A stretch of DNA of 64,000 bases from Thermoplasmata archaeon (GCA_020696345.1 JAEHCK010000011.1:213-64212), one strand, 5' to 3'. Numbered from the stretch's first letter, positions 6,319 to 59,668 are shown. Notes: a model not told the origin generated them from the letters alone. Translations and numbers: made by a program.

Positions 6319-9300
6319 ATGTTTAGGGTGCATAAAAGATTCATTATCATTGGGGTATTATTGATTCTTATATCCAGTACAATTGGTAGTCACCTGATCT
6401 TGTTAACTGGTGATTCGATTAAAGCAGGTGGTGGACGAGATAATAGAAATGCACGAGTGGTTGTGGGGCCCAAAGAAATGCTTGATAATACTGATTTTTC
6501 AGCAGTAAGAAGCTGGGTTTTGATAGATGCAACGAAGGTAAAACCCGCACCCGCCCCTGCCGTTGTTCACACTGATGTCAGGTATAATAATTTGATCTCA
6601 CCGCAATATATCGTATTCGAAAATGACCAACAATTGAACTCGGATGAAACACCTATTTCACCACCATTAAAAGCACGGCTTACACAAACGTTTAATAAAA
6701 CATTCTGGACATCCAATAATCCAAACTCTGTGATATGCAGTTTCGATTACACTCCAACATATTACAATGGTCTAATCGATGGTAGTCCTGCAATCTACGC
6801 CGATATTATATTAGAAATTATGAACCTGTCGACGGGTGTTTATGGCCGTTGGCCAATTGAAAAGGATGCCACTCCCAATTTTGGCAACGGTTCTTACAAG
6901 ACAGATGATTCAAGAATAACATATCCAAGCACACAATTCTTTGTTACCCGGGATATAGGTTCCGGCCCCACCGGCGGCAGTTTTCCGGCAGGTGTGTTCA
7001 ACATTAGCCCACCCGGTCTTTACGAACTTAGTATTATATTTCAAATATGGAGCACAACTCAGGCTTTATTTAACGTGAATACTTATTATACATTTTTATT
7101 TGATAATGTATCGCTGCAGGTTATGGATGTAGAAGAACCGGCAGTGGTGGCTAATAATTCTTCATTTGGCCCTTTCAACAATAATACTTATGATGATCAG
7201 ATCAATGGTAAGATCGATATTGATTTCTTTGCCGGATCTGGTAACAATACACCGTTGAACGAAGGCAAATACAGGCTTAACAATTCCGGCAAACCAGGCC
7301 AGTGGCATCTAATATTCAAAAGCATCACAGAAATGCAGTATACTTATAATTGGTCGATTGCCGCTGTGTGGGCGAACATGAGCGAGGGGAAAAACTATAT
7401 CGATATCTATTGTAGCGATCAGGCCGGTAATTATAATGACTCAGTGCAAATTACCGTGATAAAGGACACGATCCCTCCGGTAACATATCTTCACTCCATT
7501 AACGAATATCAAACCACAAAAGAGTTTCACATTTATTATTATGCCAGAGATCCAGTACCTTCCGGTGGATTTAATAGCACGGTTATATTGATGTTCAAGC
7601 ATAATGGTTCTGGAAAATATGTGAATTATACAACATCGGATAACCCATCCGGGTTGTTCGATCACAACCCGATATTATTCGATATAACAAAGGCTGGTGT
7701 GGGGTATGGTGAGGGTAAGTATGAATTTTATAGCATAGGAATTGACAACACCAGTAACCAAGAGGCACCACCCGCACAAAATAAAATGCCCGACACCGAC
7801 ACTATTGTGGATATACATGGACCAAAACTTATTTTCATTGAACCAAAAGGAAAATATATCGTAGGTACGGAGACACTCACTATCGAGTCTGAAAATGACA
7901 CGAAACTTGTAGAATTCTACTATTGGTTAGATCTGGACAAGGATGGGCAAGCCGACGATGTTGATGATATAAGTAGTGTTTGGGTGTTGATCGATACAAT
8001 CTACAAACCTAAACCCGGCCAGTCAGATAATTGGTCAACCGAATGGGATACCAAATCCGGTAAGGATTTTATATTGGAAGAAGGCATGGTGGTTTTAAAG
8101 GCAATGGCCGTTGACATTGCAAATAATGTTAATGAAGCGTATAAGAACAATATTGAAGTTGATAATGTTGCACCAAAGGTAAAGATCACCAACCCAGAAA
8201 CACTTAGTCCCGAAAATGAAGCGCTAATTTGGATCAACTATACCACAGACCCCGATGTAATGTATGCAACATTCTATTATAGAATACATGATGATAAAGA
8301 AGATAATGCGGAATGGATAAAGATAACCGATAAGGAAAATCACACGTATGGCGATACCATTGGTACTTATCAATGGGTGTTATCAAAAGAATTTCGACAG
8401 GCAAAACCAAGAATAGATATTAAAGTGGAAGTGTCCGATGATGCTGGAAACACTGGGATGTGTGTTGTGGAATATTTACAGCCACCTCCTGTAGGACCGA
8501 AGATCAAATCAGATTTCCCAACACAAATCATGTGGGAAGAGGACTTTGGTAAAAAAACATTGAAACTAACAAAATATGAATCACATTACGACTCGAGTAT
8601 CACAGGGGACAACCTGAAATGGTATATCACATGGAATAGTGAAAAACTCTTCCACATCACCGGTAACAATAATACTGGTGAGAATGCCGATACATTCGTG
8701 TTCACCAGTATTGAAAATAGGTACGGTCAAGAGGTTTTAACCTACCATTTACATGACATGCAAGGGATAGAAGCTACCATCGAGCAGACGATCATCGTGA
8801 TCTCCAAACCCGATCGGCCGGAATTCAATCCACCTACCGAGACTATACATGTAAGATATGGTGAACCGGATACATTTGACCTATCGTATTATATTTTTGA
8901 TGTTGACAATAATAAGATCGACCTGATCCTAACCACAAATGATCCCAAGAATATTACTACAAACGGATTGAATCTAACTTTCAATTATGGTGGATCAATG
9001 AAAGGACAAAAAAAGTTAATTCGAGTCACAGTGACTGATTTCGAATATTCGATCACCAGGACCATCGAAATATTCATCTCGGACAATCATCGACCCAAAT
9101 TAGTTCTAGATCTTCCAAACGATATAGTGCTTCAGAGTGGTGTGGTTGTAAAAGACATTCTAGATCTGGATGAGTATTTCCATGATTTGGAAGATGATGA
9201 CAAATTAACTTTTACATCTGAAGAATCAATAGAATATGACGGACAACAAAAAGTAATTATTTCCATTGGTAAAGAGAATAACGTGACACTCGAAGCACTG

Positions 9301-10584
9301 CCAAATGTGGAAGGCCAGGTGACTATTCGGTTCACGGCAAAAGACCCACTAGGTGCCTGGGGCGTGGGAGATATAAAGATCACGATCAAAGATATCCCAG
9401 ACCCTCCCAGGATCAAGACAATACCAGATATAAACGTACATTACTACAACCCGAACTCTACGACCGATTATGACGGCTATGGCTACGACTTCTCGTATTT
9501 CGTCAACGACCCTGATACAGACCGTTCGGAGCTAATTGTCTGGGCACAGTCTACCATGGACGAAAATGACGATGCCTGGATCCAGGAAGACCCGAAGAAT
9601 AATATGAGGTTAATATTCAAGTTCCCGTTCACAGCCGTAGGCAAACATACATTAGTCCTGTATGCACAGGATCCAAATCCGAAAACAGAAATGGCTTATA
9701 GACATTTCAATGTTACTGTAATAATCGATGCCTGGCCGGTTGAATATATCGGTACGATCCCCGAACAAAGTTTCTTCAGAGATGCGGTATTTGACAATGC
9801 ATTTAATTTCGAGGACTATTTCGAGGACAAAAACGGTCAAGCGGGCGGGACCGACTACTCGATACTGGAAAACCCGAAAAGCAATGTCAATGCAGTGATC
9901 GATAGAGATAACTATGTTGACCTATCTTGTAAAAGTCAGTACTGGCATGGTTATGACGAGTTTGTGATCTTGGCAATGGATACCAATCCCGTGCAATACG
10001 TGTATGCAGTTATAAAAGTGCATGTACTTTATATGCCACCACCGCCCTTGGATCCGCTGCCAATAGTTAATCTAAAAATAGGTGAGGAAAAAACTCTGGA
10101 CCTTAGTAATTATTTTTTTAATGCAAACACACACATTTCTGATCTTGTCATTGAAACCAATGACCCGGAACATATCTGGGTAGACGGAACGAAATTAATT
10201 ATCAAGTATGACAAAGAAGGCACATACTTTGTCAAAGTTTGGGTAATATATCCTGATGGTACAAACCGATCAAGCGATCTGATAATTTATGTAGACGAAC
10301 CATCCAAACCTGAACAGGATAAAACATCAACTACATTCATGTACGAATTAATTGTGGGAATTTTGGTTACTGTCGTGTTTGTCGTTCTTTTAATATTATT
10401 TTTTATGGTCAAAAAAAGGCCAACTCCACTAACCCATAAACAACGTGATAGAATTGTATCTTCCATGCCGGTAAAGACCGTGAAACGGGGTAATACACAA
10501 GAAAAAGCTCATAAAATCCTAATTTATCCACAGCCAACCCAAACACCAACTGACCCCAGTCAACCACCAGTAAAGATAAAGTAG
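6319..10584 (+). CDS. Giant membrane-anchored surface protein with many Ig-like domains
   Basis: Long ORF (the ORF track starts at TTG 6295; ATG 6319 precedes the signal anchor MFRVHKRFIIIGVLLILISS). Repeated Ig-like domain endings (DQAGNYND, AVDIANNVNE, VSDDAGNTG). C-terminal TM (LIVGILVTVVFVVLLILFFMV) plus a Pro/Thr/Gln tail. Confidence 0.75.
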   Translation: MFRVHKRFIIIGVLLILISSTIGSHLILLTGDSIKAGGGRDNRNARVVVGPKEMLDNTDFSAVRSWVLIDATKVKPAPAPAVVHTDVRYNNLISPQYIVFENDQQLNSDETPISPPLKARLTQTFNKTFWTSNNPNSVICSFDYTPTYYNGLIDGSPAIYADIILEIMNLSTGVYGRWPIEKDATPNFGNGSYKTDDSRITYPSTQFFVTRDIGSGPTGGSFPAGVFNISPPGLYELSIIFQIWSTTQALFNVNTYYTFLFDNVSLQVMDVEEPAVVANNSSFGPFNNNTYDDQINGKIDIDFFAGSGNNTPLNEGKYRLNNSGKPGQWHLIFKSITEMQYTYNWSIAAVWANMSEGKNYIDIYCSDQAGNYNDSVQITVIKDTIPPVTYLHSINEYQTTKEFHIYYYARDPVPSGGFNSTVILMFKHNGSGKYVNYTTSDNPSGLFDHNPILFDITKAGVGYGEGKYEFYSIGIDNTSNQEAPPAQNKMPDTDTIVDIHGPKLIFIEPKGKYIVGTETLTIESENDTKLVEFYYWLDLDKDGQADDVDDISSVWVLIDTIYKPKPGQSDNWSTEWDTKSGKDFILEEGMVVLKAMAVDIANNVNEAYKNNIEVDNVAPKVKITNPETLSPENEALIWINYTTDPDVMYATFYYRIHDDKEDNAEWIKITDKENHTYGDTIGTYQWVLSKEFRQAKPRIDIKVEVSDDAGNTGMCVVEYLQPPPVGPKIKSDFPTQIMWEEDFGKKTLKLTKYESHYDSSITGDNLKWYITWNSEKLFHITGNNNTGENADTFVFTSIENRYGQEVLTYHLHDMQGIEATIEQTIIVISKPDRPEFNPPTETIHVRYGEPDTFDLSYYIFDVDNNKIDLILTTNDPKNITTNGLNLTFNYGGSMKGQKKLIRVTVTDFEYSITRTIEIFISDNHRPKLVLDLPNDIVLQSGVVVKDILDLDEYFHDLEDDDKLTFTSEESIEYDGQQKVIISIGKENNVTLEALPNVEGQVTIRFTAKDPLGAWGVGDIKITIKDIPDPPRIKTIPDINVHYYNPNSTTDYDGYGYDFSYFVNDPDTDRSELIVWAQSTMDENDDAWIQEDPKNNMRLIFKFPFTAVGKHTLVLYAQDPNPKTEMAYRHFNVTVIIDAWPVEYIGTIPEQSFFRDAVFDNAFNFEDYFEDKNGQAGGTDYSILENPKSNVNAVIDRDNYVDLSCKSQYWHGYDEFVILAMDTNPVQYVYAVIKVHVLYMPPPPLDPLPIVNLKIGEEKTLDLSNYFFNANTHISDLVIETNDPEHIWVDGTKLIIKYDKEGTYFVKVWVIYPDGTNRSSDLIIYVDEPSKPEQDKTSTTFMYELIVGILVTVVFVVLLILFFMVKKRPTPLTHKQRDRIVSSMPVKTVKRGNTQEKAHKILIYPQPTQTPTDPSQPPVKIK

Positions 10585-10773: not shown

Positions 10774-13700
10774 ATGATGAGAACTAGAGTAATAAAGAGG
10801 TTGTTTTACGTATATTTGATATTCGCATTAATTACTGCTGGCTTAATCGGATTTCTAATGTTTGAAGGTGTGCGCGACACTCCCGGTGCACAAGCCGCAG
10901 CAATCATAGTCGATTCCAACGGCGGCGGCAATTACACCAAGATCCAGGATGCCATCGATGCCGCCAACCCAGGCGATACTATCTATGTCTGGGCCGGAAC
11001 GTATGTTGAGAATTTCATAATCAATAAAACATTAACCATGATCGGCAACGGAACTTCCAATACAACGCTCGTTGGTGCCATGGACGGTAACGTGGTTTTG
11101 ATCGAAGCAGATTGGGTGAACTTCTCGGGCTTTGAGATCAAGTCAAGTGGTAGCTGGAACTACGGCATCAGGCTTAATTTTGCTAATAACTGCAGTGTCG
11201 ATTCAGTTAAATTTACCAACCTATCTGTGAGTGTCAACCTGATACTCTCAGATAGAAACACCATCACCAATATCACAGGAAGTACTGGCTCGGTCAATCA
11301 TATATTGACATTTAATTCGAATTATAACTTGTTCAAGAATCATACATACTTCTCAACCGTATATTCACGGGTGAAGCTTGATAGTTCAGTGTTCAATACA
11401 CTCATGGATCTCGAGCTTGATAATACTCCTGGGACAGATATGCAAAATACTATTGAACTTGGTAAGTGTAGAAGCATGACACTTAAGAACAATAAAATTA
11501 CCCGGGGCGGAGTATTGATAACCAGCTTTAACTCGGTGGTTTCACATTGGAACACCCATGACATCGACCAGACCAACCTGGTAAACGGAAAGCCCGTCTA
11601 TTATCTGAAGGACCAGCAGAATACTGTGATACCTTCGGGCAAGGGTCAAATTATACTCGCTAATTGTAAAGATATAACTGTTGAAGACTATGACTTCAAT
11701 AATGTGAGCAGCGGTATAACACTCGGGTACTCACAAAATATTGTTATTTCGGATAACACATTCACCAATAACAACTACGGCGTCTATATTTTTGAGTCTG
11801 ATCTCAATACGATAAATAATAATAATTTTAATGTTAACGAATACAACATTCATCTCATCGGTTCGAACAATACTGTGATGGATAATTCTCTTTCCAAAAG
11901 CGATTGGAACAACATTTGGCTGAAAGGTTCTGATAATAGAGTGATAAATAATACGATTCAAGAGGGTTTTAACAGCATTCGTTTGGATTGGGACAGTAAC
12001 CGCAACCTGGTTTACGATAATACCTGCTTCCTAGCAAGTATGGAGGCTATTGGTATTTATGGTAAATACAATATTATTGCCAACAACTCATGCGACTTGA
12101 GCCCTACGGGGATCTTGCTGCGTGATATTGAAAACACTGTTATCAATAACACATGTTCCAATAACCATTACGGCATTAAATTGGGAACTCTATCAACATT
12201 GAAAAGACCAGGCAGCAATATTGTCAAGAACAATACATGTAAAAACAACGACGGCACCGGAATTGAGGTATACACCAGCGATAATCTGATCGAAAATAAT
12301 TATTGTTCAGAGAATGCATTTGGCATGAAATTTACTACTTCTGATAATAACATAGTCAGAGAGAACAATATTACCTATAACATAAATGGTTTCTCTTTAA
12401 CCTCTGATTGCATAAATAATACAATTTATCACAATAACATCATTTACAACGACCTGCAGGTCACAGACGATGGTGATACCGAATGGAGCTTTGATTCTGA
12501 AGGCAATTACTGGTCAGATTACAAGGGCTCTGATGACGGTTCAAACGGTCGTGTTGCAGGTGACGGTATTGGTGATACCGAGATTCCGCATATCCAACTG
12601 GATAACTTTCCGTTCGTGGAGGAGTCTGGCTGGGCATATCCAGGTGTGCTTGAATTCTTAGACCCGGGCGAAGTTGATCCCGATGGTGAATATACGTTAG
12701 CTTGGACCGCGAGTTATAGAGCCACGAAGTATTTGGTTGAGGAAGATGTTGTAATTACTTTTGATTCAGCAAATGTGGTCTATTATGGTTCAGATCTATC
12801 ATTTGATATTGTAAATAAAGACAACGGCACGTATTATTATCGCGTCATACCGTATAACGACCTGGGACCTGGTAGCTGGTCCAACTTTGTAGGAATTACC
12901 GTAGATTGGCTGCCAAATATACCGAAAAACCTATCTGTAGCAGTATTTCCAGCAGGAAATACGCTTAACATATCTTGGGACCCAAACAAAATTGATACCC
13001 AGAGATATAAGCTTGAATTTACCAATGAAACAATGACCATTAGGCAAACGCTTGAGATCTTTGACCACCCCGATAATACTTATAACCACACAGGATTAAA
13101 CGACGATGAGTTTCATTTATATTGGTTATCAGCCTGCGATGGCCGCGGCCAGTGGTCTGAGCGTACCGAATCTGTCTTTGCAATTCCGCATGATTCGGTT
13201 GCACCGGCACCGCCCACGGGACTAAAAGTGTTATTGACATCGAACGATACCGTAGTTCTAACCTGGAACTCAAGCCTCGAGGGCGACGTTGTGGGTTATA
13301 ATATTTACAGAAGTACCTTATCATCCGACCCTGCTACCTGGGGTAGGTTAATAGCGGTTGTTCCGGGGAACAAGAAACAGTATTTTGATTCCGATGCAGA
13401 CCTTCTGGAGGATTTCACATATTACTATACGATCAGGGCTTATGACGAGGTGCCCAACTATTCCAATTTTTCAAACATCGTAACTGCTAAAACCCTGCTT
13501 GGACCGCATGCGCCTGAGATAAATCACTCTTTACCAGATTTCGAATTGCTTGAAGATACCATAGATGTAACTTCCATCAATTTATCGTACTGGTTCAAAG
13601 ATATCAATGGTGACCCGCTAAAGTTCTCGTATGAAGGCCAGGAGCATATATTTATTGATATAGATGGAGAGGACGGCAGCGTGTTAATTGCACCGGAAGA

Positions 13701-14655
13701 GAACTGGAGCGGCCAAGAGACACTGACATTTACCGCCTCGGACGGTTTGTCCTCGGTATCTGATGATGTGACCATTACGGTACTACCAGTTAACGATCCA
13801 CCCGGAGATCTAAAGATCATGCAGCCGTTCGAGGGTGACGAGGTCTATGATGATGAGCCCATCAGTTTTCTAGCCGCTTGCGACGACCCGGATGAACCGT
13901 ACGGTGATCTGCTAACATTCAACTGGACCTCCAATATCTCCGGCCACCTGGGGTATGGCGACTATCTTGAAGGGCTCTATCTATCTCCCGGAGTACATTT
14001 AATAACGCTGACGGTCTGGGATACCGAAGGCCAGAGCATCAATACCAGTATTAATATTACAGTATTAGCGAGCCAGGCTATTGATCCACCTGATAAGCCG
14101 AACAAAGGCGACGAGGATAAAGATAGTTATATCGTATATTCTCAGATAGTAATTTCAGCAGTGGTCTCGATAATAATTATAATCATTCTCGGCGCATTTT
14201 TATTCATGTTCTACAGACGAAAAAAGGTGAAAGTTAAAGACGCACCCACCGAACCTCAACCCCAACCATTTTATACGGTTCAGGATAGGATGGGTGTCCA
14301 ACAACAACCACAACCGATGGTACGAGAGTCGGCACCAACACACATACCAATACAAACACAACCCCAGATAGTTCAATCCACCACTATGGCACAGCAGCCC
14401 ACGATACAACGATCACCATCCATTGCAACTGTACCCCAACCCAAGATCGCCTCGGTAGGAACACTACCAGAGAAACAGCGCATGCCCGCAGGTGAAAAAC
14501 GGCCAATACTACCACCTGGCAATGGTAATGAGGAAATGGTTAAAAGTCATGGAGTCGAGAGTCCTGGGAGTTCCGAGTCTAAAAACGTGAGTCAGGAGCT
14601 GGTGGTCAAGGAAACCACAAATCCCAATAATCAAATCATAAAAAATGGTTTGTGA
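10774..14655 (+). CDS. Giant surface protein: parallel beta-helix (NosD/PbH1-like) repeats, FN3-like, cadherin-like and PKD-like domains, TM, Pro/Gln-rich tail
   Basis: Signal anchor (LFYVYLIFALITAGLIGFLMF). GGGNYTKIQDAIDAANPGDTIYVWAGTY, then many N-rich beta-helix turns (NNTFTNNNYGVYIF, NNTCSNNHYGIKL). FN3-like (APAPPTGLKVLLTSNDTVVLTWN). VLPVNDPP. TM (IVISAVVSIIIIIILGAFLFMF). Confidence 0.8.
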   Translation: MMRTRVIKRLFYVYLIFALITAGLIGFLMFEGVRDTPGAQAAAIIVDSNGGGNYTKIQDAIDAANPGDTIYVWAGTYVENFIINKTLTMIGNGTSNTTLVGAMDGNVVLIEADWVNFSGFEIKSSGSWNYGIRLNFANNCSVDSVKFTNLSVSVNLILSDRNTITNITGSTGSVNHILTFNSNYNLFKNHTYFSTVYSRVKLDSSVFNTLMDLELDNTPGTDMQNTIELGKCRSMTLKNNKITRGGVLITSFNSVVSHWNTHDIDQTNLVNGKPVYYLKDQQNTVIPSGKGQIILANCKDITVEDYDFNNVSSGITLGYSQNIVISDNTFTNNNYGVYIFESDLNTINNNNFNVNEYNIHLIGSNNTVMDNSLSKSDWNNIWLKGSDNRVINNTIQEGFNSIRLDWDSNRNLVYDNTCFLASMEAIGIYGKYNIIANNSCDLSPTGILLRDIENTVINNTCSNNHYGIKLGTLSTLKRPGSNIVKNNTCKNNDGTGIEVYTSDNLIENNYCSENAFGMKFTTSDNNIVRENNITYNINGFSLTSDCINNTIYHNNIIYNDLQVTDDGDTEWSFDSEGNYWSDYKGSDDGSNGRVAGDGIGDTEIPHIQLDNFPFVEESGWAYPGVLEFLDPGEVDPDGEYTLAWTASYRATKYLVEEDVVITFDSANVVYYGSDLSFDIVNKDNGTYYYRVIPYNDLGPGSWSNFVGITVDWLPNIPKNLSVAVFPAGNTLNISWDPNKIDTQRYKLEFTNETMTIRQTLEIFDHPDNTYNHTGLNDDEFHLYWLSACDGRGQWSERTESVFAIPHDSVAPAPPTGLKVLLTSNDTVVLTWNSSLEGDVVGYNIYRSTLSSDPATWGRLIAVVPGNKKQYFDSDADLLEDFTYYYTIRAYDEVPNYSNFSNIVTAKTLLGPHAPEINHSLPDFELLEDTIDVTSINLSYWFKDINGDPLKFSYEGQEHIFIDIDGEDGSVLIAPEENWSGQETLTFTASDGLSSVSDDVTITVLPVNDPPGDLKIMQPFEGDEVYDDEPISFLAACDDPDEPYGDLLTFNWTSNISGHLGYGDYLEGLYLSPGVHLITLTVWDTEGQSINTSINITVLASQAIDPPDKPNKGDEDKDSYIVYSQIVISAVVSIIIIIILGAFLFMFYRRKKVKVKDAPTEPQPQPFYTVQDRMGVQQQPQPMVRESAPTHIPIQTQPQIVQSTTMAQQPTIQRSPSIATVPQPKIASVGTLPEKQRMPAGEKRPILPPGNGNEEMVKSHGVESPGSSESKNVSQELVVKETTNPNNQIIKNGL

Positions 14656-27642: not shown

Positions 27643-27661
27643 ATATGGGTGTAATAATATT

Positions 27662-36320: not shown

Positions 36321-36340
36321 ACCAAAACCTCAAACATGGT

Positions 36341-38350: not shown

Positions 38351-38607
38351 AAGAATTCTGAATTAATTGTAATGCATTTTTAAGAATTCTTAGTTCCAGA
38401 CAATTTTTTATGAAAAATTGTTGAGGTTTAAAATTTGACTTATCAATTTGCTCTAGCAAATTTTTCTAAAGGTATAAATTCCGAATCTAATTACATAATT
38501 ATAGAAAGAATTTATAGCTCGAGACCATTTTCGTAAGAAAATTGTCGAAGCTTTGAAAAACTAAAAAGTTTTTCAATGTAGAATAATTTTTCTCTAGAAA
38601 ATTGTTC
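38351..38607. repeat. Train of seven short AT-rich hairpins (7-9 bp stems)
   Basis: AAGAATTC/GAATTCTT 38351-38391; CAATTTTT/AAAAATTG 38401-38420; AATTTGC/GCAAATT 38445-38462; TATAAATTC/GAATTTATA 38473-38516; GACCATTTT/AAAATTGTC 38523-38546; TTGAAAAAC/GTTTTTCAA 38553-38576; GAATAATTTTC/GAAAATTGTTC 38581-38607. Confidence 0.7.
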
Positions 38608-38690
38608 CAATATCCCAAGCAACGATCAAGCACATTTTACCAACAACTTAATTACCCCCTTTATTATTTATACACTTGAAGGTGAAAATC

Positions 38691-49073: not shown

Positions 49074-49103
49074 GTAAAAAGTGTTCCAATCTTTATTTTA
49101 ATA
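49074..49103 (+). promoter_or_regulatory. Shared box AAAAAGTGTTCCAAT plus TATA-like TTTATTTTA
   Basis: 15-nt identity with 53286-53300. Located about 45-70 nt upstream of ATG 49145. Confidence 0.35.
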
Positions 49104-49144: not shown

Positions 49145-52100
49145 ATGCGGCGTACAGTTTCTGTTATTGTTGTGATCTTTTTATTATTGGGTGGATTTAT
49201 ATTACCGATATCTTTCGACTTGACTTCGCAAGATGCATCGGCAGAGGATTGGTATATGTCCATAGATGTGGATACCACCTGGAACACGGATATGGCCATC
49301 AAACAGGATATTTATATTAGCGCTGGCAAAACATTAACGATAGACCCGGGCGTTACAATTCTATTCGACGGAGCATTCAGTTTAATTGTAAATAGCACGG
49401 GCAAGTTGGTAGCGAACGGTGGCCAAACACAACCGATAACCTTTGACCGAACAGGAGGCAGTAAATGGGCAGGACTGGAAGTTCTTAATAATGCCAGGTC
49501 CGAGCTTGACTGGTGCACGTTTAATAATGCAAATAATGGGATCATTTTACAAAATAATCAATTTTATACCAACATCACGAACAGCTCATTCTCTAATTGT
49601 ATACAATATTTAAATATTAAAACTTCAAAGGTCAATATAACCAGCACGAAGTTTGAAGGTAAAGCATTTGATAAAAACCCAAACCAGATCCTGGGCAAGA
49701 TCGACATGGACAGCACCTCTGAAATATATATCCAGTATTTTGTTAACATATATACGGTGAACGGTTCGTCAGATCTGACCATGCGGGCGCGGATGACGTA
49801 CCCGGTTTCGAATGTGAACGTGGACCTAGATAATTTTGTTCAGGACCGGCTATTCGGTACCACGGGTTCTAATGGTACCGTTTCGAACATGCGTGCAACT
49901 TCATTGAAGATCAATGGCTCGGCAAAAACCCGTGATTATCAATTTAGTATTTATAAAATGGAAGTGTCCGATAAGTGGGACAGCACAATGCGTGAGGCCT
50001 TTGGAATTTCTCGTAATTCTACGAATTTTAATTTATCTTCAATAGTGAATCAATCATTTTCGGGTGATGATCTTGAAGTCGATTCAAATCTTCATATTAA
50101 TGCATTCTTCATGTTCAAATATCCACCTGTGATCACCTCAGCTTCAAATAGGGTGACCGTTTACGAGGATGCTCCAAAAACAGACAGTTTCATATTCTTT
50201 GATAATGATGACGATTCCGATCTCGAAAGTAATATCACTATTAATATTACCGACCAGCACGGGAAAACAATATATAGTGATGAGCCGAATACAACAGACA
50301 CATGGATCAGCTGGTATAATGAAACAGAAGAGTTAATTTTCTACAGGACCATCGAATCACCCGACACACCGGCTGGCCCGGGGGATTACAAGGCCAAAGT
50401 AGATGAGACCATTTACGTAACAATAACAGACCTATTGGGCCAGAAGGCAGAACACAGCATAATAATCGAGTATCATAATGTTCCGGACAAGCCGATGATC
50501 ACCGGGATACCGGTAACCATACCAGTGGTCGAGGATCAGGTGAAATATATCCCGATCTCGGTCTCCGATAACGATAACGGTACTGCCGACATATATATCT
50601 CAAGCAATAGTGAATATGTGAAATATGTCTACAATGATACCAATGACCAGAGTTTATATTTCAAGTTCCCGAACGAGTTTGGTGCGGACGGGTCACAACA
50701 GTTGGTGAACATCTCGGCAACCGATAACTGCTCGGATGAGGTTACATATAATTTTAATGTGCTGTTCAGCCAAACTCCCGACCGGCCGAAGATCATTGGC
50801 ACGATCCCGAACAAGATCGGTACGGAAACCGACTGGACCCCGGAGCTTGTATTGAATGATTATTGGTTCGACCCCGACCCAGATGATAACGCGAACACTT
50901 TGGATTGGTATGTGTCGGGTGTGAATGCCAAATACTTTGAGGTCTTCGGTGCGAACCAAACGGCCGTTTCACCGTTAAGCTTCAATTACATCTATGATAT
51001 TGATCTGGGTGGTGCCCGAAGCCAGGGTCAGATCGTGGATGATGTCACGATCTGGCTTGAGGATAAGGACGGGTTGAAAGTACATCAAAATATTAAATTG
51101 ATAGTGACCGGAACAAACCAGCAACCAAGCCTGCACAAGGTCAAGATCAATAATACCCAATTTTCGGTACAGCCGGAAGCCGGTGATAATGACCAAACAT
51201 ACAAGTTCATGATCGAATACAAGGACCGCGACGGTTTAAAAGGTGATGCACCCGAGCATGTCAGGGTAATTATCGATAGCGAGCAGCATGATATGCTCGA
51301 ACAAAACCCTGATGACGAAGATCATATCGATGGCAAGTTATATTATTACGAAACCAAGCTGAGTATCGGCACGCACCAGCATTATTTCGTATGCTCCGAC
51401 AGCGCTCTCTCTTCTCGTCAGCCCAAACTGGACGACGATCCGAACATAATATCGTTGCCAGTAGTGAGCTCAAAGATCAATATCGGTAAATTCAAAAGTA
51501 ATGACGGCAATTTCATAGCGAAAATAGCGTATACCGGTAATAAAGGCAGTGCATCGATCACGATTACGGCTACGGATGTTGTTTCTGTGCCTGCGGCCGC
51601 ATACGAGGAGCGCAAGGGCGATATCGGTGTATATTTCGTGATCAAAACCCAAAATATGAGCTCGATCATCTGGGTGGATATTTCGGTCAAGTTTGGTTCC
51701 GGGTTTGACAATTATGGTTCTCGTTGGTTGAAGAAGGACGATATGGATTTGGCTTATCTGGAGAATACCACCTGGCAGCCGTTGATACAGGAATCGAACA
51801 TGTTTCTTGAAGATGATATGAATATGCTGGGATGTAATTTCACGCGCACGAACATTTTAAGCGCTTTACTCATCGATAACAACACGGCCATGTTCACGGT
51901 GATCGGCTGGCTGGATGCGGATAGCGATGGGTATTTCAATGACGAGGATGATTTTCCGTTCGACACCGCAGCCAGTGAAGATAGGGACACCGACGGCTCA
52001 CCCGATAAATGGAACCCTGGAAAAAACCAAAAAGACTCCACAACAGAACCGAAGTTACACCTGGACAAGTTCCCAGACGACCCCGCAGCCAGCCTGGATG

Positions 52101-53041
52101 ATGACGAAGACGGCTATCCGGACGCATGGAACCCCGGTATGGGCTATAATGATTCCACATCGGACCCCAAACTGAACCTGGATATATGGCCCGGCGACCC
52201 GGAAATGAGTTTGGATACAGATCGCGACGGTTATGCCGATGGCGATAAATTGAACACGAAACCATGGATGGACCGTGATGACGACAACGATGGCATGCCC
52301 GATGCATGGGAGATCAAGTGGCTGGAATATGCCATCGAACATAATATATCCTATCATTTTAACCCCAAGGATCGGACCGATGGTGCGTATGACTGGGATT
52401 CGGACGGGCGCAATAATACCAAGGAGTATCTGGAAAACACCAATCCGTTCAAAAAAGATACGCCAAAGAAAGATGAAGGTATGCTTTCGGGTTCGGCAGG
52501 TTGGGCGGCTGTGATCGCCATGGTGGTGATCATCGTTATTTTAATACTTTTCATGTACACCAAAATGCATCGTGACCAGCTGCTGGAGCACAAGGTACGG
52601 GCGAAGATCCTGGACTATATTAACGGGCACCCGGGCACACATTACCGCAAGATCTTGAGCGAGCTGGACATGCAGATGGGCACATTGACCCATCACCTGA
52701 ACATGCTCGAACGGCAGAAATATATCAAATCACTCCAGGACAGCATGTACCGACGGTTCTATCCGGTGGGGACGCCCATTAAAACCGGCTTGTTATTGAC
52801 CGAGGTTCAAGAGCGCATTTTGGGCACAATGAAAAAAAGCCCCGGCATGTCACAGGCCGAGATCGCGCGCAGGCTTAACGTGGCACGTAAGGTGGTGAAT
52901 TATCATATGAAGATACTCTCGGATGCGGACTTTGCGCGTGTGGAGTTGGTGGGGCGGGCGAGCAGGTGTTATTACCTGGATGGCCTGGAGTTTCCGAAAA
53001 AACCCAAACCCACTATGCTCAGAGGAAGACGTGCTGCATAA
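49145..53041 (+). CDS. Receptor-like giant membrane protein: beta-helix / cadherin-like ectodomain, TSP3 stalk, TM, cytoplasmic tandem winged-helix HTH
   Basis: GAGGTGA lies 7 nt before ATG 49145 (the ORF track starts at GTG 49136). Signal anchor VSVIVVIFLLLGGFILPI. TSP3-like DADSDGYFNDEDD, DRDTDGSPD, DDDEDGYPDAW, DTDRDGYADGD, DDDNDGMPDAWE. TM AAVIAMVVIIVILILFMY. wHTH 1 HYRKILSELDMQMGTLTHHLNMLERQKYIKS. wHTH 2 MSQAEIARRLNVARKVVNYHMKILSDADF. Confidence 0.85.
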   Translation: MRRTVSVIVVIFLLLGGFILPISFDLTSQDASAEDWYMSIDVDTTWNTDMAIKQDIYISAGKTLTIDPGVTILFDGAFSLIVNSTGKLVANGGQTQPITFDRTGGSKWAGLEVLNNARSELDWCTFNNANNGIILQNNQFYTNITNSSFSNCIQYLNIKTSKVNITSTKFEGKAFDKNPNQILGKIDMDSTSEIYIQYFVNIYTVNGSSDLTMRARMTYPVSNVNVDLDNFVQDRLFGTTGSNGTVSNMRATSLKINGSAKTRDYQFSIYKMEVSDKWDSTMREAFGISRNSTNFNLSSIVNQSFSGDDLEVDSNLHINAFFMFKYPPVITSASNRVTVYEDAPKTDSFIFFDNDDDSDLESNITINITDQHGKTIYSDEPNTTDTWISWYNETEELIFYRTIESPDTPAGPGDYKAKVDETIYVTITDLLGQKAEHSIIIEYHNVPDKPMITGIPVTIPVVEDQVKYIPISVSDNDNGTADIYISSNSEYVKYVYNDTNDQSLYFKFPNEFGADGSQQLVNISATDNCSDEVTYNFNVLFSQTPDRPKIIGTIPNKIGTETDWTPELVLNDYWFDPDPDDNANTLDWYVSGVNAKYFEVFGANQTAVSPLSFNYIYDIDLGGARSQGQIVDDVTIWLEDKDGLKVHQNIKLIVTGTNQQPSLHKVKINNTQFSVQPEAGDNDQTYKFMIEYKDRDGLKGDAPEHVRVIIDSEQHDMLEQNPDDEDHIDGKLYYYETKLSIGTHQHYFVCSDSALSSRQPKLDDDPNIISLPVVSSKINIGKFKSNDGNFIAKIAYTGNKGSASITITATDVVSVPAAAYEERKGDIGVYFVIKTQNMSSIIWVDISVKFGSGFDNYGSRWLKKDDMDLAYLENTTWQPLIQESNMFLEDDMNMLGCNFTRTNILSALLIDNNTAMFTVIGWLDADSDGYFNDEDDFPFDTAASEDRDTDGSPDKWNPGKNQKDSTTEPKLHLDKFPDDPAASLDDDEDGYPDAWNPGMGYNDSTSDPKLNLDIWPGDPEMSLDTDRDGYADGDKLNTKPWMDRDDDNDGMPDAWEIKWLEYAIEHNISYHFNPKDRTDGAYDWDSDGRNNTKEYLENTNPFKKDTPKKDEGMLSGSAGWAAVIAMVVIIVILILFMYTKMHRDQLLEHKVRAKILDYINGHPGTHYRKILSELDMQMGTLTHHLNMLERQKYIKSLQDSMYRRFYPVGTPIKTGLLLTEVQERILGTMKKSPGMSQAEIARRLNVARKVVNYHMKILSDADFARVELVGRASRCYYLDGLEFPKKPKPTMLRGRRAA

Positions 53042-53282: not shown

Positions 53283-53314
53283 TCAAAAAAGTGTTCCAAT
53301 ATTTACTTTTATAG
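53283..53314 (+). promoter_or_regulatory. Shared box AAAAAGTGTTCCAAT plus TATA-like TTTACTTTTATA
   Basis: Same 15-mer as at 49076-49090. Located about 65-90 nt upstream of ATG 53378. A second GTTCCAAT lies at about 53261. Confidence 0.35.
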
Positions 53315-53377: not shown

Positions 53378-54520
53378 ATGGTGAAAAGTATAAAAAAAGT
53401 GAAAAAAAACAAGAAACGGATGAATAAAATATTGTACCTGATCGTGGGGTTGGTGATCGGGATCTTTATCTTCACGGCGGGCACCATGGCCATGATGGTC
53501 AAAGACGAGATCAAGGAGAAAGACCCAGGGCCGCCGCCAGAGCCTGTCAATGAAGCACACCTGTTCGTGGAGGATGTCTACTTTATGATGGACGGCAGTA
53601 GAGCGGCTGTTGATGGAGACGGAATTGAAAGAGTGGATATAATTACCACCGTATATATCACAAATGACGGTCTTGCCGAGGCAAAGAATGTGAAGATCAC
53701 TGCCTGGCCAATGGATGAGGACAAGAACATGGGCAAGGATAAAGTTGATGAGACCGTGGGAATAATACCCATCCAAAAGACATCGGAGATCGAGCTTACC
53801 ATCAGAGTACCGCCCGGTGCACGGCATAATGTTGATTTCCTGATCTTCGAGCGCGATCTATTGATCCTTCGCGGCAGCGGCTCGGTGGTGACCGAGGGTA
53901 CATTTAAAAATACACCCAAATACCAGACCAATGAGGTCAAAGGCACGGTGAACGATACCGACTACGACGGCATACCCGATGACTGGGAGCGGTACTACGG
54001 CTTGGACCCGAACGACCTAAACGATGCACACGATGATCCGGATGGGGACGGCGTGAGTAATCTGGAGGAGTATCGTGCTAACACGGAACCGAGAGATCCA
54101 AAAGTTGGTGGTTGTGAAAGTGATGATGATAAAGAAGAAAAAGGATTATCAAGCCTTGATAATGGGGCAGTAGTCGGTGGTCTGGGCATATTTATTGCAA
54201 TAATTGTCATAATCATCATCATTATTGCAGTATTTGCATCATCAAAGCATGAGCATCATAACAAGGTCAACAATAATCCCCAAGCATATACAAACCAATA
54301 TACACCGCCGAGCATATTGAATGTACAGCCAGGCCAAGTCATACCTAAACGCTGCTCACGGTGCGGTGGCTGGGTGGTGAACGATGCTTGCACACTCTGC
54401 GGCAGTAGATATCCACCAGCAACCACACCAACTGCTCCAGAGCCACAAATAGTTTCTGAAACAGAGGATGTTTCTGATACCAAAGAAGAAAATGCCGAGT
54501 GGGAAAGTGATCAGAAATAA
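53378..54520 (+). CDS. Receptor-like membrane protein: CARDB-like domain, TSP3 stalk, TM, cytoplasmic zinc ribbon
   Basis: AGGAGGG SD. Signal anchor ILYLIVGLVIGIFIFTAGTMAMM. DTDYDGIPDDWE, DPDGDGVSNLEEY. ESDDDKEEKGLSSLD. TM GLGIFIAIIVIIIIIIAVF. CSRCGG...CTLCG. Confidence 0.8.
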   Translation: MVKSIKKVKKNKKRMNKILYLIVGLVIGIFIFTAGTMAMMVKDEIKEKDPGPPPEPVNEAHLFVEDVYFMMDGSRAAVDGDGIERVDIITTVYITNDGLAEAKNVKITAWPMDEDKNMGKDKVDETVGIIPIQKTSEIELTIRVPPGARHNVDFLIFERDLLILRGSGSVVTEGTFKNTPKYQTNEVKGTVNDTDYDGIPDDWERYYGLDPNDLNDAHDDPDGDGVSNLEEYRANTEPRDPKVGGCESDDDKEEKGLSSLDNGAVVGGLGIFIAIIVIIIIIIAVFASSKHEHHNKVNNNPQAYTNQYTPPSILNVQPGQVIPKRCSRCGGWVVNDACTLCGSRYPPATTPTAPEPQIVSETEDVSDTKEENAEWESDQK

Positions 54521-54773: not shown

Positions 54774-55745
54774 ATGATATCAAACTACAAGATCATTCAA
54801 AGAAATTTAACTATCGTTCTAGTTTTAATCCTTATCTTAGTTTGCTCCATTGTACCTGTACAAGCTCAACAGGATTCAGATACCGACAGCATGCCGGACA
54901 GCTGGGAGACTACCAACGGTCTGGATGCTAATAATTCTGCCGATGCAGATAATGACACCGACGCCGACGGGTTGACCAATAAAGAAGAATACGATAATGG
55001 CACCGACCCGAACGATCCGGATACCGACGGTGACGGCATGCCCGATGGCTGGGAGGTACAATACGGTCTTGATCCAAATGATGAAACCGATGTTGAAGAG
55101 GATCCGGATAAAGATGGATTTAATAACTTAGATGAATATAAAAGAAATGGAGATCCAAAAGATCCAAGAAAACCGGCTGGTGGTGCTGAGTCTGATGATG
55201 ATAAAGAAGAAAAAGGAATGAGTTCTTTAGACACCAGCCCTTTCTGTCTCTTGCTTTTAATCCCCGGAATCGTCATACTGCTCGTCATCATATTCGTGTA
55301 TACCAAGATGCGCCGCGAACGGCTCCTGGAGCATAAGGTACGGGGTGATATATTCGCCCATATCAACAAAAACCCCGGCGTGCACTACCGCGGCATCATG
55401 AACGAGTTGGGCCTGCACATGGGCACGCTCACACATCACCTGAACATGCTCGAGACACAGCGGTACATAAAATCGTACCAGGACGGCATGTACCGCCGGT
55501 TCTACCCCATCGATCACAAGATCGGCACTGGCCTGATACTCACCGAAATTCAGCACAAGATCTTGCAAGCCATACACGATAGCCCGGGGCTGTCGCAGGT
55601 GGAGATCGCGGGTAAAGTAAACCAGAACCGCAAGATCGTGCACTACCATGTGAAATTGCTCTCCGATGCCGGGTTCGTGCATGTGGAGCAGGCCGGCCGC
55701 GAGAGCAGGTGCTATTATGCAGGTGGGTTGAGAATGGGGGGATAA
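54774..55745 (+). CDS. Short receptor-like membrane protein: TSP3 stalk only, TM, cytoplasmic tandem winged-helix HTH (paralog of the 49145..53041 C-terminus)
   Basis: Signal peptide LTIVLVLILILVCSIVPVQA. DSDTDSMPDSWE, DNDTDADGLTNKEEY, DPDTDGDGMPDGWE. ESDDDKEEKGMSSLD. TM LLLLIPGIVILLVIIFVY. wHTH HYRGIMNELGLHMGTLTHHLNMLETQRYIKS and LSQVEIAGKVNQNRKIVHYHVKLLSDAGF. Confidence 0.85.
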   Translation: MISNYKIIQRNLTIVLVLILILVCSIVPVQAQQDSDTDSMPDSWETTNGLDANNSADADNDTDADGLTNKEEYDNGTDPNDPDTDGDGMPDGWEVQYGLDPNDETDVEEDPDKDGFNNLDEYKRNGDPKDPRKPAGGAESDDDKEEKGMSSLDTSPFCLLLLIPGIVILLVIIFVYTKMRRERLLEHKVRGDIFAHINKNPGVHYRGIMNELGLHMGTLTHHLNMLETQRYIKSYQDGMYRRFYPIDHKIGTGLILTEIQHKILQAIHDSPGLSQVEIAGKVNQNRKIVHYHVKLLSDAGFVHVEQAGRESRCYYAGGLRMGG

Positions 55746-57664: not shown

Positions 57665-59668
57665 TCAATTCTTTTTTCGTTTTGTATGATAAAAATAAAC
57701 AACCATGGCGCCAGCCAGGATCAGTATTAGCACAACTGAGAGCATGACCGGTGACGCACCCACCTCATCTTTTCTCCGCGGTTTATTCTGTGTGGCAAGC
57801 TCCATGAAGTGTTCAAGCGAGGTCTGTACACCGTTTATCGCACGTACCTTAAGGGTATGATCACCGTTCTCGAGGCCAGTGGTATCAAGTTCATACGTCC
57901 AATTTAGATAGATACCATTCACTTCTTTTGTTTTGACCTTCTTCCAGCTGCCATTATCCACTGCAATTTCTATGGCCTCGATCTCAATGCCAGTTTTCGA
58001 GAACGCTACACCACCAATAGTAGTGGTGCCAGTAGTAATGTTTTCCACTCCCATTTCGAGCTCTGTGATGAAGCATTGAAGATTTACATCTATTATATCC
58101 ACATCAGTAATGCTGGCGCTGACCATAACTGCTTTGTAAGCATCCACCGCACCCCAGCCAAAATCCTTGTTCCAGAACGGGTCAAGTTCGGGTATTGTTG
58201 CCTTGCCGCGGCGCTCGGCTGTAAGGTGAAGGATCTCCTTAATTACTTCACTGGTAAGTTTTGGATTAGCCTCGAGCATCATTGCACATATTCCAGCTAC
58301 TACCGGTGTTGCATACGATGTACCGCTTCCGCGGCTGCCGTAGCCGTTCCCCGAACCATCACCGATCGGGTCGAACTGTACCTGCATGATATGGGTCCCC
58401 GGTGCGGTAATATCCGGCTTCAACTCGTTATACGGGTTGCCGTCGTTGTTATCGTGTCTTGGCCCGCGGCTCGAGTATTCGGCTATTATATCATCGGACC
58501 GGTCGATGGTGTCCAGGTCATCTGACGCCGCCACAGAGATACCGTTGGAGGCCGCAGAAAATCCGCGAAAACCATCATTGTTCGGCCCTGAATTACCTGC
58601 AGCATGGCACACGATCACACCGGTATCCGCGAGCCGGTCCAGCGCAGCCGAGTATGCATCAGAACCGTCCGACGGGCTGTCAGTATCAATGCCCCAGGAC
58701 AGTGAGAGTATATCAATACCTTTATTCTCGGGATCCGCTCCAGCCCATGAGTCATCTTTGTGTTTAATGATCCACTCGATGCCTTCCAGAGAAGCATCCA
58801 GGAACTTGACCGGCATCGGTCCCTCACCTGGTGCGTAACCGAACACCGTGCCTATTCGTACATCAACCACCTTAGCCTCCGGCGCCGCACCCATGTATTT
58901 CCCCTCGGGTGCGCCCGTACCAATGGCGATACCCGTGCATGTGGTCCCGTGGCCGTTGGTATCATCAGCGTCAAAGGTGCCATCTTGAAATATACCTAAG
59001 GGATCAGGTTTGCTGATATCAGCCCCGCCAACCCATTTACCTGTCAGGCTCGGGTGGGCATTATCCACACCCGTGTCCATTACCGCAATATTGACGCCTA
59101 GACCCTGATACCCAAGCTCCCAGGCGGTGAACGGCGAGTATTCATTTGACTCGCGTGCCTTCACCGCGGGCGTGGCGATATCCGAGTACAGTACCGGCCT
59201 GCCGGGGTTCTCCACACGCAGGACGCCGGGCAGTCCAGCGATGGTCCCTATTATTGGCACGGGTACAGCGAGCAATGAAACCATATCCAGGTACCAGAAG
59301 ATGTTGCCGATCTCCACACCAAGGTCGCGTAATGTGGTAATGTCATCTTGGGTTAGTCTATCTTTGAACATCACTATTGTATCCAACCGTTGGTAACCCT
59401 TATGGATCCAGGTGTCAAGATCATCCGAGATCTTGTTGTTATTCCGATCACGTGTTGATATTAATGGTGTAGTGGTTTCATCTTGGTTGTACCTGTCCAT
59501 GCAGCCATTGCTTGTGGGTGCATGGTCGGTTGTATTCTCCGTTAGATCGATGGTAACTTCACGGCTGCGGGCGGGGATGGTAAAAAATACCGAATTGATC
59601 GGCAGTAAAATTAATAATACCAGACACGCTGCGGCAATCTGTTGGGTGATCTTGACCTCAGTCCTCAT
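57665..59668 (-). CDS. Membrane-anchored subtilisin-like (S8) serine protease
   Basis: Signal anchor. I9-like propeptide. Catalytic Asp (AVMDTGVDNAHPSL), His (NGHGTTCTGIA), Ser (GSGTSYATPVVAG). Ig-like domain. C-terminal TM (VMLSVVLILILAGAMVVYFY). Confidence 0.9.
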   Translation of the reverse strand: MRTEVKITQQIAAACLVLLILLPINSVFFTIPARSREVTIDLTENTTDHAPTSNGCMDRYNQDETTTPLISTRDRNNNKISDDLDTWIHKGYQRLDTIVMFKDRLTQDDITTLRDLGVEIGNIFWYLDMVSLLAVPVPIIGTIAGLPGVLRVENPGRPVLYSDIATPAVKARESNEYSPFTAWELGYQGLGVNIAVMDTGVDNAHPSLTGKWVGGADISKPDPLGIFQDGTFDADDTNGHGTTCTGIAIGTGAPEGKYMGAAPEAKVVDVRIGTVFGYAPGEGPMPVKFLDASLEGIEWIIKHKDDSWAGADPENKGIDILSLSWGIDTDSPSDGSDAYSAALDRLADTGVIVCHAAGNSGPNNDGFRGFSAASNGISVAASDDLDTIDRSDDIIAEYSSRGPRHDNNDGNPYNELKPDITAPGTHIMQVQFDPIGDGSGNGYGSRGSGTSYATPVVAGICAMMLEANPKLTSEVIKEILHLTAERRGKATIPELDPFWNKDFGWGAVDAYKAVMVSASITDVDIIDVNLQCFITELEMGVENITTGTTTIGGVAFSKTGIEIEAIEIAVDNGSWKKVKTKEVNGIYLNWTYELDTTGLENGDHTLKVRAINGVQTSLEHFMELATQNKPRRKDEVGASPVMLSVVLILILAGAMVVYFYHTKRKKN

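Follow-up and report, generated by a model that had tools for sequence, protein, structure and literature searches.

What do the tails of large, receptor-like surface proteins do in an archaeon? The question is raised by a 64,000-nt stretch of DNA from a Thermoplasmata archaeon, the whole of which we call the window, where nine genes, named here G1 to G9 in coordinate order, encode proteins with a common layout: an N-terminal hydrophobic segment, a large ectodomain, a C-proximal transmembrane (TM) helix and a tail. An earlier note on this DNA took the long, varied tails as a sign of coupling between the outside and the inside of the cell. We translated the nine open reading frames (ORFs) and verified each at its expected position and strand, with a single terminal stop; their summed length of 28,272 nt, or 44.2% of the 64,000, agrees with the approximately 28.3 kb and 44% that had been claimed. 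Three of the nine have slightly longer alternative starts (TTG at 6295, TTG at 38676 and GTG at 49136). We think it likely that three of these genes, G6 (49145..53041), G7 (53378..54520) and G8 (54774..55745), all on the + strand, constitute a conserved one-component trans-membrane regulatory module, and that the other six encode anchored surface proteins. Architecture, predicted topology, conservation, synteny and the association of a sequence motif with this class of genes are what we observed in its support.

The argument begins with the tails of G6 and G8. G6 (1298 amino acids) has a lineage-specific ectodomain of about 920 residues, six repeats like those of thrombospondin type 3 (TSP3), a TM helix at residues 1119-1138 and, by Pfam, a tandem winged helix-turn-helix (wHTH) tail at 1146-1283. 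G8 (323 amino acids) was delimited with Pfam, a 33-sequence family alignment and an AlphaFold model, and consists of a signal sequence, 3-4 TSP3 repeats of the Ca-binding type, a disordered acidic linker, a TM helix at 157-176 and 2 winged domains, wHTH1 and wHTH2; its whole length is 44% identical to the last 313 residues of G6. Both tails score above the Pfam cut-offs for HTH_HVO_0163_N (G6 51.6 and G8 41.6 bits; cut-off 31) and HTH_24 (47.6 and 48.9 bits; cut-off 21.9), and sequence profiles match wHTH1 of G8 to PDB entry 5duk, a 'putative DNA binding protein' (E=5e-13), and wHTH2 to ArsR/MarR regulators. The TM helices are strong, with Kyte-Doolittle peaks of 3.03 in G6 (residues 1119-1137) and 3.37 in G8 (157-175). 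In the AlphaFold model of G8, which has a mean predicted local distance difference test (pLDDT) value of 86 and confident TSP3 repeats, a single helix from residue 158 to 199 comprises both the TM segment and helix 1 of wHTH1, wHTH2 lies at 258-315, and the juxtamembrane segment 136-156 is disordered (pLDDT <50). The alignment of the G8 family contains 42 invariant columns, among which is the recognition-helix region LTHHLNMLE, as well as a conserved junction, YTKMRRExLLEH, directly behind the TM helix, and few parts of these proteins are as well conserved as the wHTH tails. Because the tails of G6 and G8 are predicted DNA-binding tandem winged helices joined directly to a TM helix, outside-to-inside coupling is well founded for these 2 proteins.

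For this arrangement to have its proposed meaning, the winged helices must lie inside the cell. TM segments were called from Kyte-Doolittle hydropathy, and orientation from the positive-inside rule, with K and R counted in the 15 residues on each side of the C-proximal TM helix. Every one of the nine proteins has a hydrophobic segment within its first 40 residues, with 2-9 K/R and no more than one D/E ahead of it, and a very strong C-proximal TM helix (Kyte-Doolittle 2.8-3.9). Of the two 15-residue stretches, the one behind that helix holds 4-6 K/R in every protein but G7, where it holds 2, and the one ahead of it is neutral or acidic in net charge in every protein but G9 (4 K/R against 2 D/E). 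On account of this clustering of K/R behind the C-proximal TM helix and the neutral or acidic segment ahead of it, all nine tails are predicted to be cytoplasmic and the ectodomains to be outside. Hydropathy thus supports the common layout in all nine, and hydropathy and charge give an orientation that is not inverted. An outside N terminus and inside C terminus with a single C-proximal TM helix are supported for eight of the nine, G5 having two or three further TM helices; a weak additional hydrophobic segment is also found in G9, at 123-150.

G7 (380 amino acids) differs from the 2 putative regulators in its tail. Its N terminus is strongly basic, with a long basic region and a 24-residue hydrophobic stretch that looks like an uncleaved anchor, and is followed by DUF7490, TSP3 repeats, a TM helix at 269-287 and a 93-residue tail (Pfam). 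The tail contains a predicted zinc ribbon, CSRCGGWVVNDACTLCGSRY, at 54353..54412 of the + strand (residues 326-345 of G7), spaced C326-x2-C-x8-C-x2-C341, with the consensus CxxCGG-x3-N-x2-CxxCG-x2-Y; it has the 2 conserved CxxC knuckles, 8-20 residues apart, by which such ribbons are recognized. The ribbon is kept in 4 related loci (L002, L038, L041 and L042) and is common to the five closest G7 orthologues. G7 and G8 have a TSP3-linker-TM stretch in common (50% identity over 119 residues), and this homologous segment is a hint that G7 and the regulator may interact. A G7 homologue stands directly upstream of a G8 homologue in 11 loci from a genome scan and also in L038, L041 and L042, so that the DUF7490 gene upstream of the TSP3-type regulator has the character of a co-component, a conserved neighbour that encodes a single-pass membrane partner. 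The G6-G7-G8 module as a whole is conserved in at least 5 related genomes, and the order G4, AAA_18, CDP-alcohol (CDP-OH) transferase, G6, an optional extra regulator, G7, G8 is kept in L038 and L042. Since G7 is a conserved operon partner with a conserved zinc ribbon, coupling is plausible for this protein also.

Comparison of homologues indicates that the 2 kinds of tail can replace each other. Homologues of the G6 ectodomain (41-59% identity) are colinear with it up to the TM helix; beyond this point G6, P0243 and P0246 have a tandem wHTH tail, and P0244, P0245, P0247 and P0248 have an alternative tail of about 200 acidic and P-rich residues that ends in a zinc ribbon, FxCPNCGxxLTRxMTxCPGC. 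As one type of ectodomain is found with either tail, wHTH and zinc-ribbon tails are, by this comparison of sequences, alternative outputs on the same putative sensor, and an operon usually holds one of each. In a more distant clade, the G7 tail bears an F-x3-V-x-EG[HA] motif in place of the zinc ribbon, and a zinc ribbon is found instead at the end of the approximately 200-residue tail of a large upstream FG-GAP/Ig protein. Such type-I proteins with FG-GAP and Ig-like domains lie upstream of G7/G8 homologues at L004:4997-9382, L007:4998-9383, L009:4247-8716, L012:1823-6292, L013:4447-8838, L034:4990-9381 and L015:5791-9561. Their tails (193-232 residues) have conserved IYSPPGW, FFG and LPEGVxP motifs, an acidic W-rich run and a C-terminal CxC...CxxC zinc ribbon.

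The combination of a TM helix with a tandem wHTH output extends well beyond these loci. G8 has 493 homologues in the database, the best of which share its signal sequence, 3-4 TSP3 repeats, acidic linker, TM helix and 2 winged helices. A profile of the module, searched against 1.84 billion representative proteins, gave 11,575 matches at E<=1e-3, 6,159 clusters at E<=1e-10 and 998 at E<=1e-30. The 150 best matches have the module at the extreme C terminus of proteins of 137-1716 residues; among 131 that were analysed, the median length is 548 residues, 28 are of at least 1000 residues, and a strong TM helix lies just upstream of the module in 111, most of the other 20 having a weaker hydrophobic segment there. 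The ectodomains ahead of the module range from about 100 to about 1,700 residues and include bare TSP3 repeats, VIT+VWA, beta-helix/fn3 and undefined folds. A Halobacteriales protein with ectodomain, TM helix and tandem HTH was also recovered (L037).

A second line of evidence comes from the DNA upstream of these genes, which contains an element of the form ATTGT-N9-GTTCCAAT. On the + strand, a copy of TGTTCCAAT is located at 38603..38611, about 80 nt upstream of G4; another at 49082..49090, 55-63 nt upstream of G6, with a degenerate copy, GTTCCACA, 33 bp further upstream; and two more, exactly 33 bp apart, at 53259-53267 and 53292-53300, 78-119 nt ahead of G7, where a TATA-like box comes after each copy. 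AAGTGTTCCAAT is shared by the regions upstream of G6 and G7. In the window there are 7 copies of TGTTCCAAT against 1.19 expected, a number reached in none of 100 shuffles; 4 are the intergenic ones just listed (G4, G6 and twice G7) and 3 lie within the G2 coding sequence. Enrichment is confined to the exact core, since a 12-mer with up to 2 mismatches was not enriched in the window (11 copies against 8.7 expected). With at most one mismatch allowed, the element is found upstream, on the coding strand, in 12 of 13 G7-type genes, the background being 0.37 per kb on both strands. Among 61 exact copies of GTTCCAAT in 553 kb of related DNA, 23 precede a same-strand ORF by no more than 250 nt, and all 23 of these ORFs are type-I-like surface-protein or regulator genes or G7 homologues; the other exact copies sit inside coding sequence. 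Aligned sites give the consensus aATTGT.AAAAAa.tGTTCCAAT.TTTg.TTtAATA, in which the element abuts a TATA-like box. The layout of 2 copies at 33 bp is repeated in L038, L002, L041 and L042, and the element occurs altogether in L002, L004, L007-L013, L015, L016, L019, L027, L034, L038, L041 and L042. A scan of metagenome contigs with the strict 35-nt motif gave two matches, one at a new G7-G8 locus and the other a chance match in a bacterial-looking ORF. We infer that the element is a candidate operator of the G6-G7-G8 module.

Two other features of the intergenic DNA may be recorded here. The GC-rich region between G7 and G8 showed no significant RNA folding (z = -1.9), and short tandem repeats, GTTATGGGG / GTTATGGGA / GTTACGGGA, occupy 53100-53180 upstream of G7.

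The remaining six proteins are best read as anchored surface proteins. G1 (6319..10584, +; 1421 amino acids) has a TM helix at 1344-1364, by ORF and hydropathy, and a 57-residue tail rich in K, P, T and Q. Its ectodomain matches (Big_9, Y_Y_Y and tandem-95 in Pfam and NCBIfam) are all sub-threshold and suggest that it probably consists of Ig-like repeats. Pfam assigns to G2 (10774..14655, +; 1293 amino acids) a NosD/right-handed beta-helix with fn3 and PKD-like domains, ahead of a TM helix at 1125-1147 and a 146-residue tail of 25% P/Q, and to G3 (19811..24736, -; 1641 amino acids) DUF7948, an SBBP propeller and fn3-like domains, ahead of a TM helix at 1537-1560 and an 81-residue P/Q/H-rich tail. 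G4 (38691..42662, +; 1323 amino acids) combines an Asp-box/BNR-like propeller with Ig-like domains, a TM helix at 1282-1301 and a 22-residue acidic tail; its SxDGxxW repeats are Asp-box-like, one residue short of the canonical form, and its match to the BT_1020 propeller is just sub-threshold in Pfam/NCBIfam. G5 (43587..46796, +; 1069 amino acids) has 'TSDGGYII' propeller repeats, CARDB and TSP3, with a TM helix at 926-945, a 58-residue cytoplasmic loop and 2 further hydrophobic helices. G9 (57665..59668, -) is a 667-residue subtilase (S8) with a C-terminal TM helix at 641-660 and the 7-residue basic tail HTKRKKN. In the ectodomains, the above-threshold Pfam and NCBIfam domains are the beta-helix/NosD and fn3 of G2, DUF7948 and SBBP of G3, CARDB of G5, subtilase S8 of G9 and DUF7490 of G7, and most of the ectodomain labels given previously (beta-helix, SBBP, the GGYII repeats of G5, CARDB and subtilase) stand; the BNR label of G4 falls just short of threshold, with the SxDGxxW repeats in its favour, and the Ig-like label of G1 is sub-threshold. 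TSP3-type DxDxDG repeats lie next to the membrane, on its outer side, in G5, G6, G7 and G8.

Tail lengths are 57 residues in G1, 146 in G2, 81 in G3, 22 in G4, 124 in G5 (with the extra TM helices), 160 in G6, 93 in G7, 147 in G8 and 7 in G9. The tail types described in the earlier note were all recovered (P+Q of 23-28% in G1-G3, acidic in G4, extra TM helices in G5, tandem wHTH in G6 and G8, CxxC-x8-CxxC in G7), and its statement that the cytoplasmic tails are long holds for most of the proteins, hardly for G4 and not for G9. These last 2 are best read as simple membrane anchors with short stop-transfer sequences as tails; orthologues of G4 in L038 (49% identity) and L042 also have acidic tails, of about 27 and 65 residues against the 22 of G4.

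The low-complexity tails can be judged from homologues of G2 (n=120), G3 and G4. In the closest of the 120 G2 homologues the C-proximal TM helix is kept in nearly all, and the tails, of 24-186 residues, are P/Q-rich, K/R-rich, acidic, zinc-ribbon or tandem wHTH. The nearest full-length ones tend to be P/Q-rich (27-55%), with an approximately two-fold spread in length. At six loci, homologues of G3 (33-35% identity) are found directly downstream of a gene for a membrane-tethered wHTH protein; their tails are of 45-59 residues, five P/Q-rich and one acidic, and do not align with the 81-residue tail of G3. No alignable motif was found in the P/Q-rich tails of G3 and these six homologues, which are similar in composition. 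The expectation that tail length and composition would be conserved among orthologues thus failed at the family level for G2 and G3, the closest full-length G2 homologues remaining P/Q-rich. The tails of G1-G3 are probably fast-evolving, disordered segments of low complexity with no demonstrable signalling role, and length and low complexity in the tail of an archaeal surface protein are by themselves no evidence of signalling. In the aggregate, the proposal of outside-to-inside coupling survives for G6 and G8 and, as plausible, for G7; it is unsupported for G1-G3, and G4 and G9 are plain anchors. Counted over all nine genes, it has support in three and lacks it in the other six, G5 included.

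A regulatory mechanism consistent with these observations can be outlined, in which three components are inferred: that the tails bind the motif, what the signal is and what the zinc ribbon does. The lineage would anchor many large extracellular proteins (enzymes, propellers, beta-helices) through a C-proximal TM helix and a modular cytoplasmic tail. G8 would present a small ectodomain of the TSP3 Ca2+-binding type, and G6 the same stalk under a 920-residue ectodomain. Each would cross the membrane once, and as the TM helix is predicted to run unbroken into the first winged helix, the regulator would be held on the inner face of the membrane, with G7, carrying DUF7490 and the zinc-ribbon tail, as an obligatory partner. 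A change in the ectodomain or stalk, brought about by a ligand, by Ca2+ or by hetero-association of the proteins via their homologous TSP3/TM segments, might alter oligomerization or partner binding of the cytoplasmic wHTH pair, and with it the occupancy of ATTGT-N9-GTTCCAAT, which abuts the TATA box of the module's own operon, G4 and G6. The outcome would be a tuning of surface-protein expression.

Several observations weigh against this interpretation. The predicted template-modelling score (pTM) of the G8 model is only 0.38, and the best Foldseek matches of the 2-domain unit are weak (E ~1e-4) and include the protein-binding tandem winged helices of ScpB and ESCRT-II. About 10 residues separate the membrane from wHTH1, so that access to DNA may require proteolytic release, and annotation of the window revealed no protease gene near the regulators that could free the wHTH from the membrane. 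The element is absent from the 253 bp upstream of G8 itself and from the region upstream of the G6 orthologues in L038 and L042; it could be bound by another factor, or be a core-promoter variant specific to this class of genes. Hydropathy and charge are the whole basis of the topology. The sequencing runs that hold the window DNA, when searched for RNA evidence, were DNA metagenomes only, with 0 RNA. Also, the P/Q-rich character of the G2 tail recurs among its close homologues P0122, P0130, P0131 and P0150, and these tails may have a function.

The short distance between membrane and wHTH1 leads directly to one of the 2 alternatives that survive best, namely that G6 and G8 are latent transcription factors freed by regulated proteolysis near or in the TM helix, in the manner of SREBP, Notch or RsiV. 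We regard this as possible, though unlikely. The modelled helix 158-199 is continuous and leaves no flexible linker between TM and wHTH1, the YTKMRRExLLEH junction behind the TM helix is conserved, the disordered juxtamembrane segment 136-156 of the model could be a site-1 target, and a subtilase, G9, is anchored on the same surface; yet neither the window nor the conserved operon encodes an intramembrane protease, and there are well-documented regulators that act while still bound to the membrane (PMC10269533, PMC6396743).

A broader form of the regulatory interpretation, which we hold with a similar degree of doubt, is that the lineage possesses a combinatorial receptor toolkit, in which interchangeable ectodomains (beta-helix, propellers, FG-GAP, VWA or a bare TSP3 stalk) would be joined through one TM helix to interchangeable outputs (tandem wHTH, zinc ribbon or motif-bearing disordered tails), and in which the zinc-ribbon proteins would be co-receptors that gate the wHTH regulators of a surface-protein regulon via ATTGT-N9-GTTCCAAT, loosely as zinc-binding anti-sigma factors gate sigma factors. 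If true, archaea would have a widespread, undescribed signalling system whose topology is that of eukaryotic type-I receptors.

Two further explanations appear improbable to us, and to about the same extent. According to the first, the tandem winged helices have no operator specificity and hold DNA, whether chromosome or plasmid, or else a partner protein at the membrane. The Foldseek neighbours of the 2-domain unit, which besides ArsR/MarR proteins are RPC34, ScpB, ESCRT-II and SelB, and the very large size of a family fused to many ectodomains are in keeping with such a role, but the sequence profiles indicate HTH families of the ArsR, MarR and Lrp type, and a specific conserved element is present in the operon's own promoter. 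According to the second, all nine proteins are purely structural, adhesive or enzymatic, and their tails, winged helices included, stabilize anchoring or are otherwise non-regulatory. The variable tails of the G2 and G3 homologues and the minimal tails of G4 and G9 agree with this. The same surface-protein layout is also found in 63 of 323 ORFs (32% of bases) from 442 kb of related DNA, in which sampling favoured regulator loci; 57 of the 63 have tails of at least 20 residues, and the layout is thus the lineage's default for anchoring surface proteins. A non-regulatory role is nevertheless difficult to reconcile with the high conservation of the wHTH tails, with its 42 invariant columns including LTHHLNMLE, with their scores above Pfam thresholds for DNA-binding HTH families and with their co-occurrence with a conserved promoter element. 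That the topology is inverted or the ORFs are mis-called, leaving the tails extracellular, is very improbable: the orientation does rest on hydropathy and charge, but K/R clusters follow every C-proximal TM helix, the preceding segment is neutral or acidic in all except G9, HTH and zinc-ribbon domains are cytoplasmic folds, and other genomes conserve these ORFs, which are long and uninterrupted.

The nine genes do not form a single island, since housekeeping genes lie between them (TrkAH, Nop56/58, pyruvate:ferredoxin oxidoreductase, adenylate kinase, succinyl-CoA ligase, ABC transporter and UbiA). Homologue and locus searches showed that the relatives are metagenome-assembled genomes of Thermoplasmatota, the EX4484-6 group among them, with a single match each in Methanobacteriota and Halobacteriales outside that phylum, and the runs that hold the window DNA are marine-sediment or cold-seep metagenomes; on these grounds, the source of the window is an uncultured marine-sediment Thermoplasmatota archaeon. 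Four Thermoplasmatota-type proteins (P0012, P0199, P0243 and P0247) bear the NCBI label '[Eubacterium] cellulosolvens' (assembly GCA_975970955.1), which probably reflects a mis-assigned or contaminated bin. The left edge of the window carries tRNA-Arg(TCT) at 14-90, tRNA-Gly(GCC) at 555-629 and a gene for an Alba-family chromatin protein at 726-1124, all on the - strand and consistent with an archaeal chromosome.

Other neighbours were noted in passing. Upstream of G3, repeats at 24737-25100 consist of TTTTGG-rich runs and GGATTGT repeats. Farther upstream on the - strand, a 594-residue protein encoded at 26092-27876 has a TSP3 repeat, several C-terminal TM helices and weak matches to tape-measure-like PHROGs, and is followed by a 184-residue protein with 2 TM helices (25519-26073); neither is among the nine listed genes. 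At 27662-29157 (+), genes for AbiEi antitoxin-like (244 residues) and AbiEii nucleotidyltransferase toxin-like (254 residues) proteins overlap by 4 nt and look like a type IV toxin-antitoxin pair. At 31904-35716 (+), two MacB/FtsX-type permease genes precede a 187-residue ABC ATPase ORF with a TTG start; either this start is mis-placed or the 5' end is damaged. Three consecutive ORFs at 35751-37642 (-), of 189, 160 and 261 residues and without signal sequence or TM helix, may be what is left of a cluster of viral origin; for the last there are matches to phrog_5417 (E=1.6e-19) and a tail-fibre PHROG (8e-6), and the first contains a Big_1/invasin-D3-like domain.

The signalling pathways of uncultured archaea are poorly charted, and many lineages have few two-component systems. 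The TM-tandem-wHTH family, of about 1,000 clusters at 50% identity, unites a putative sensor ectodomain, an anchor and a DNA-binding output in one polypeptide, in the reverse of the ToxR arrangement. If the regulatory interpretation of G6-G7-G8 is correct, such proteins would give sediment Thermoplasmatota a major means of adjusting a very large surface proteome to their surroundings. The partner, the exchange of wHTH and zinc-ribbon tails and the promoter element provide defined proteins and a defined DNA site of 22-35 bp, testable in vitro without cultivation.

How does the module compare with known systems? Transmembrane transcription regulators are a class known from both bacteria and archaea, and some have a co-component encoded beside them (PMC10269533); G6 and G8, each with a predicted DNA-binding domain and a TM helix in one polypeptide, are within the definition of that class (PMC10269533). 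By the positive-inside rule their DNA-binding domains are predicted to lie on the cytoplasmic face, and control of transcription is suggested by the conserved promoter element. Like ToxR/ToxS, TcpP/TcpH, VtrA/VtrC and CadC/LysP (PMC10269533), they are predicted single-pass proteins with a winged helix of their own on the presumed cytoplasmic side and a small single-pass partner encoded next to them. They differ from the ToxR type in that the order is reversed, with the ectodomain N-terminal and the DNA-binding domain C-terminal; in having tandem ArsR/MarR-like wHTH domains rather than one domain of the OmpR/PhoB type; and in a TM helix joined to the wHTH without a linker, under ectodomains that in the family reach about 1,700 residues. 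A Trans_reg_C match, as would mark a ToxR/CadC-type regulator, was sought in G6 and G8 with Pfam and not found. The partner differs too, G7 being a DUF7490 protein with a zinc-ribbon tail and not a lipocalin-like periplasmic protein.

In archaea, ArnR and ArnR1 of Sulfolobus acidocaldarius are membrane-bound one-component regulators of surface-structure genes (PMC6396743). G6 and G8 resemble them in being archaeal, membrane-bound and one-component. ArnR has an N-terminal HTH and C-terminal TM helices and is not known to have a large ectodomain, and none of our searches detected a sequence relationship between it and the module. The wHTH1 domains of G6 and G8 resemble the ArsR-like haloarchaeal regulators of the HVO_0163 type, with an above-threshold match to PF24266. 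HVO_0163 is named 'ArsR-type' (PMC10294847); in the literature we searched it has a single proteomics mention, and no description of membrane topology, partner gene or target site was found there.

The signal sequence, modular ectodomain, one TM helix and cytoplasmic tail are also those of eukaryotic type-I receptors and integrin alpha chains, and the related loci resemble integrin alpha further in their FG-GAP and Ig-like ectodomains and their tails of about 200 residues with conserved short motifs (IYSPPGW). Unlike eukaryotic receptors, the proteins have no kinase, phosphatase or known adaptor-binding domain, and no homology of the tails was found, so that the resemblance is architectural only. 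Archaeosortase substrates likewise have a C-terminal TM helix after a large secreted domain, and G9, with its TM helix and short basic tail, comes closest to them. However, NCBIfam models for C-terminal sorting signals, PGF-CTERM included, gave 0 matches among G1-G9; eight of the tails are of 22-160 residues, 7 of the nine are far too long for a sorting signal, and in G9 the TM helix is followed by 7 residues without a known motif. A search of the literature for Thermoplasmatota surface proteins with cytoplasmic tails found nothing relevant, and the module is not described in the 'dark matter' paper. Relative to the known class, then, the features that are new, in that the literature we searched contains no description of them, are the C-terminal output, the tandem ArsR/MarR-like wHTH, the linker-less junction with the TM helix, the very large ectodomains, the DUF7490/zinc-ribbon partner and the candidate operator.

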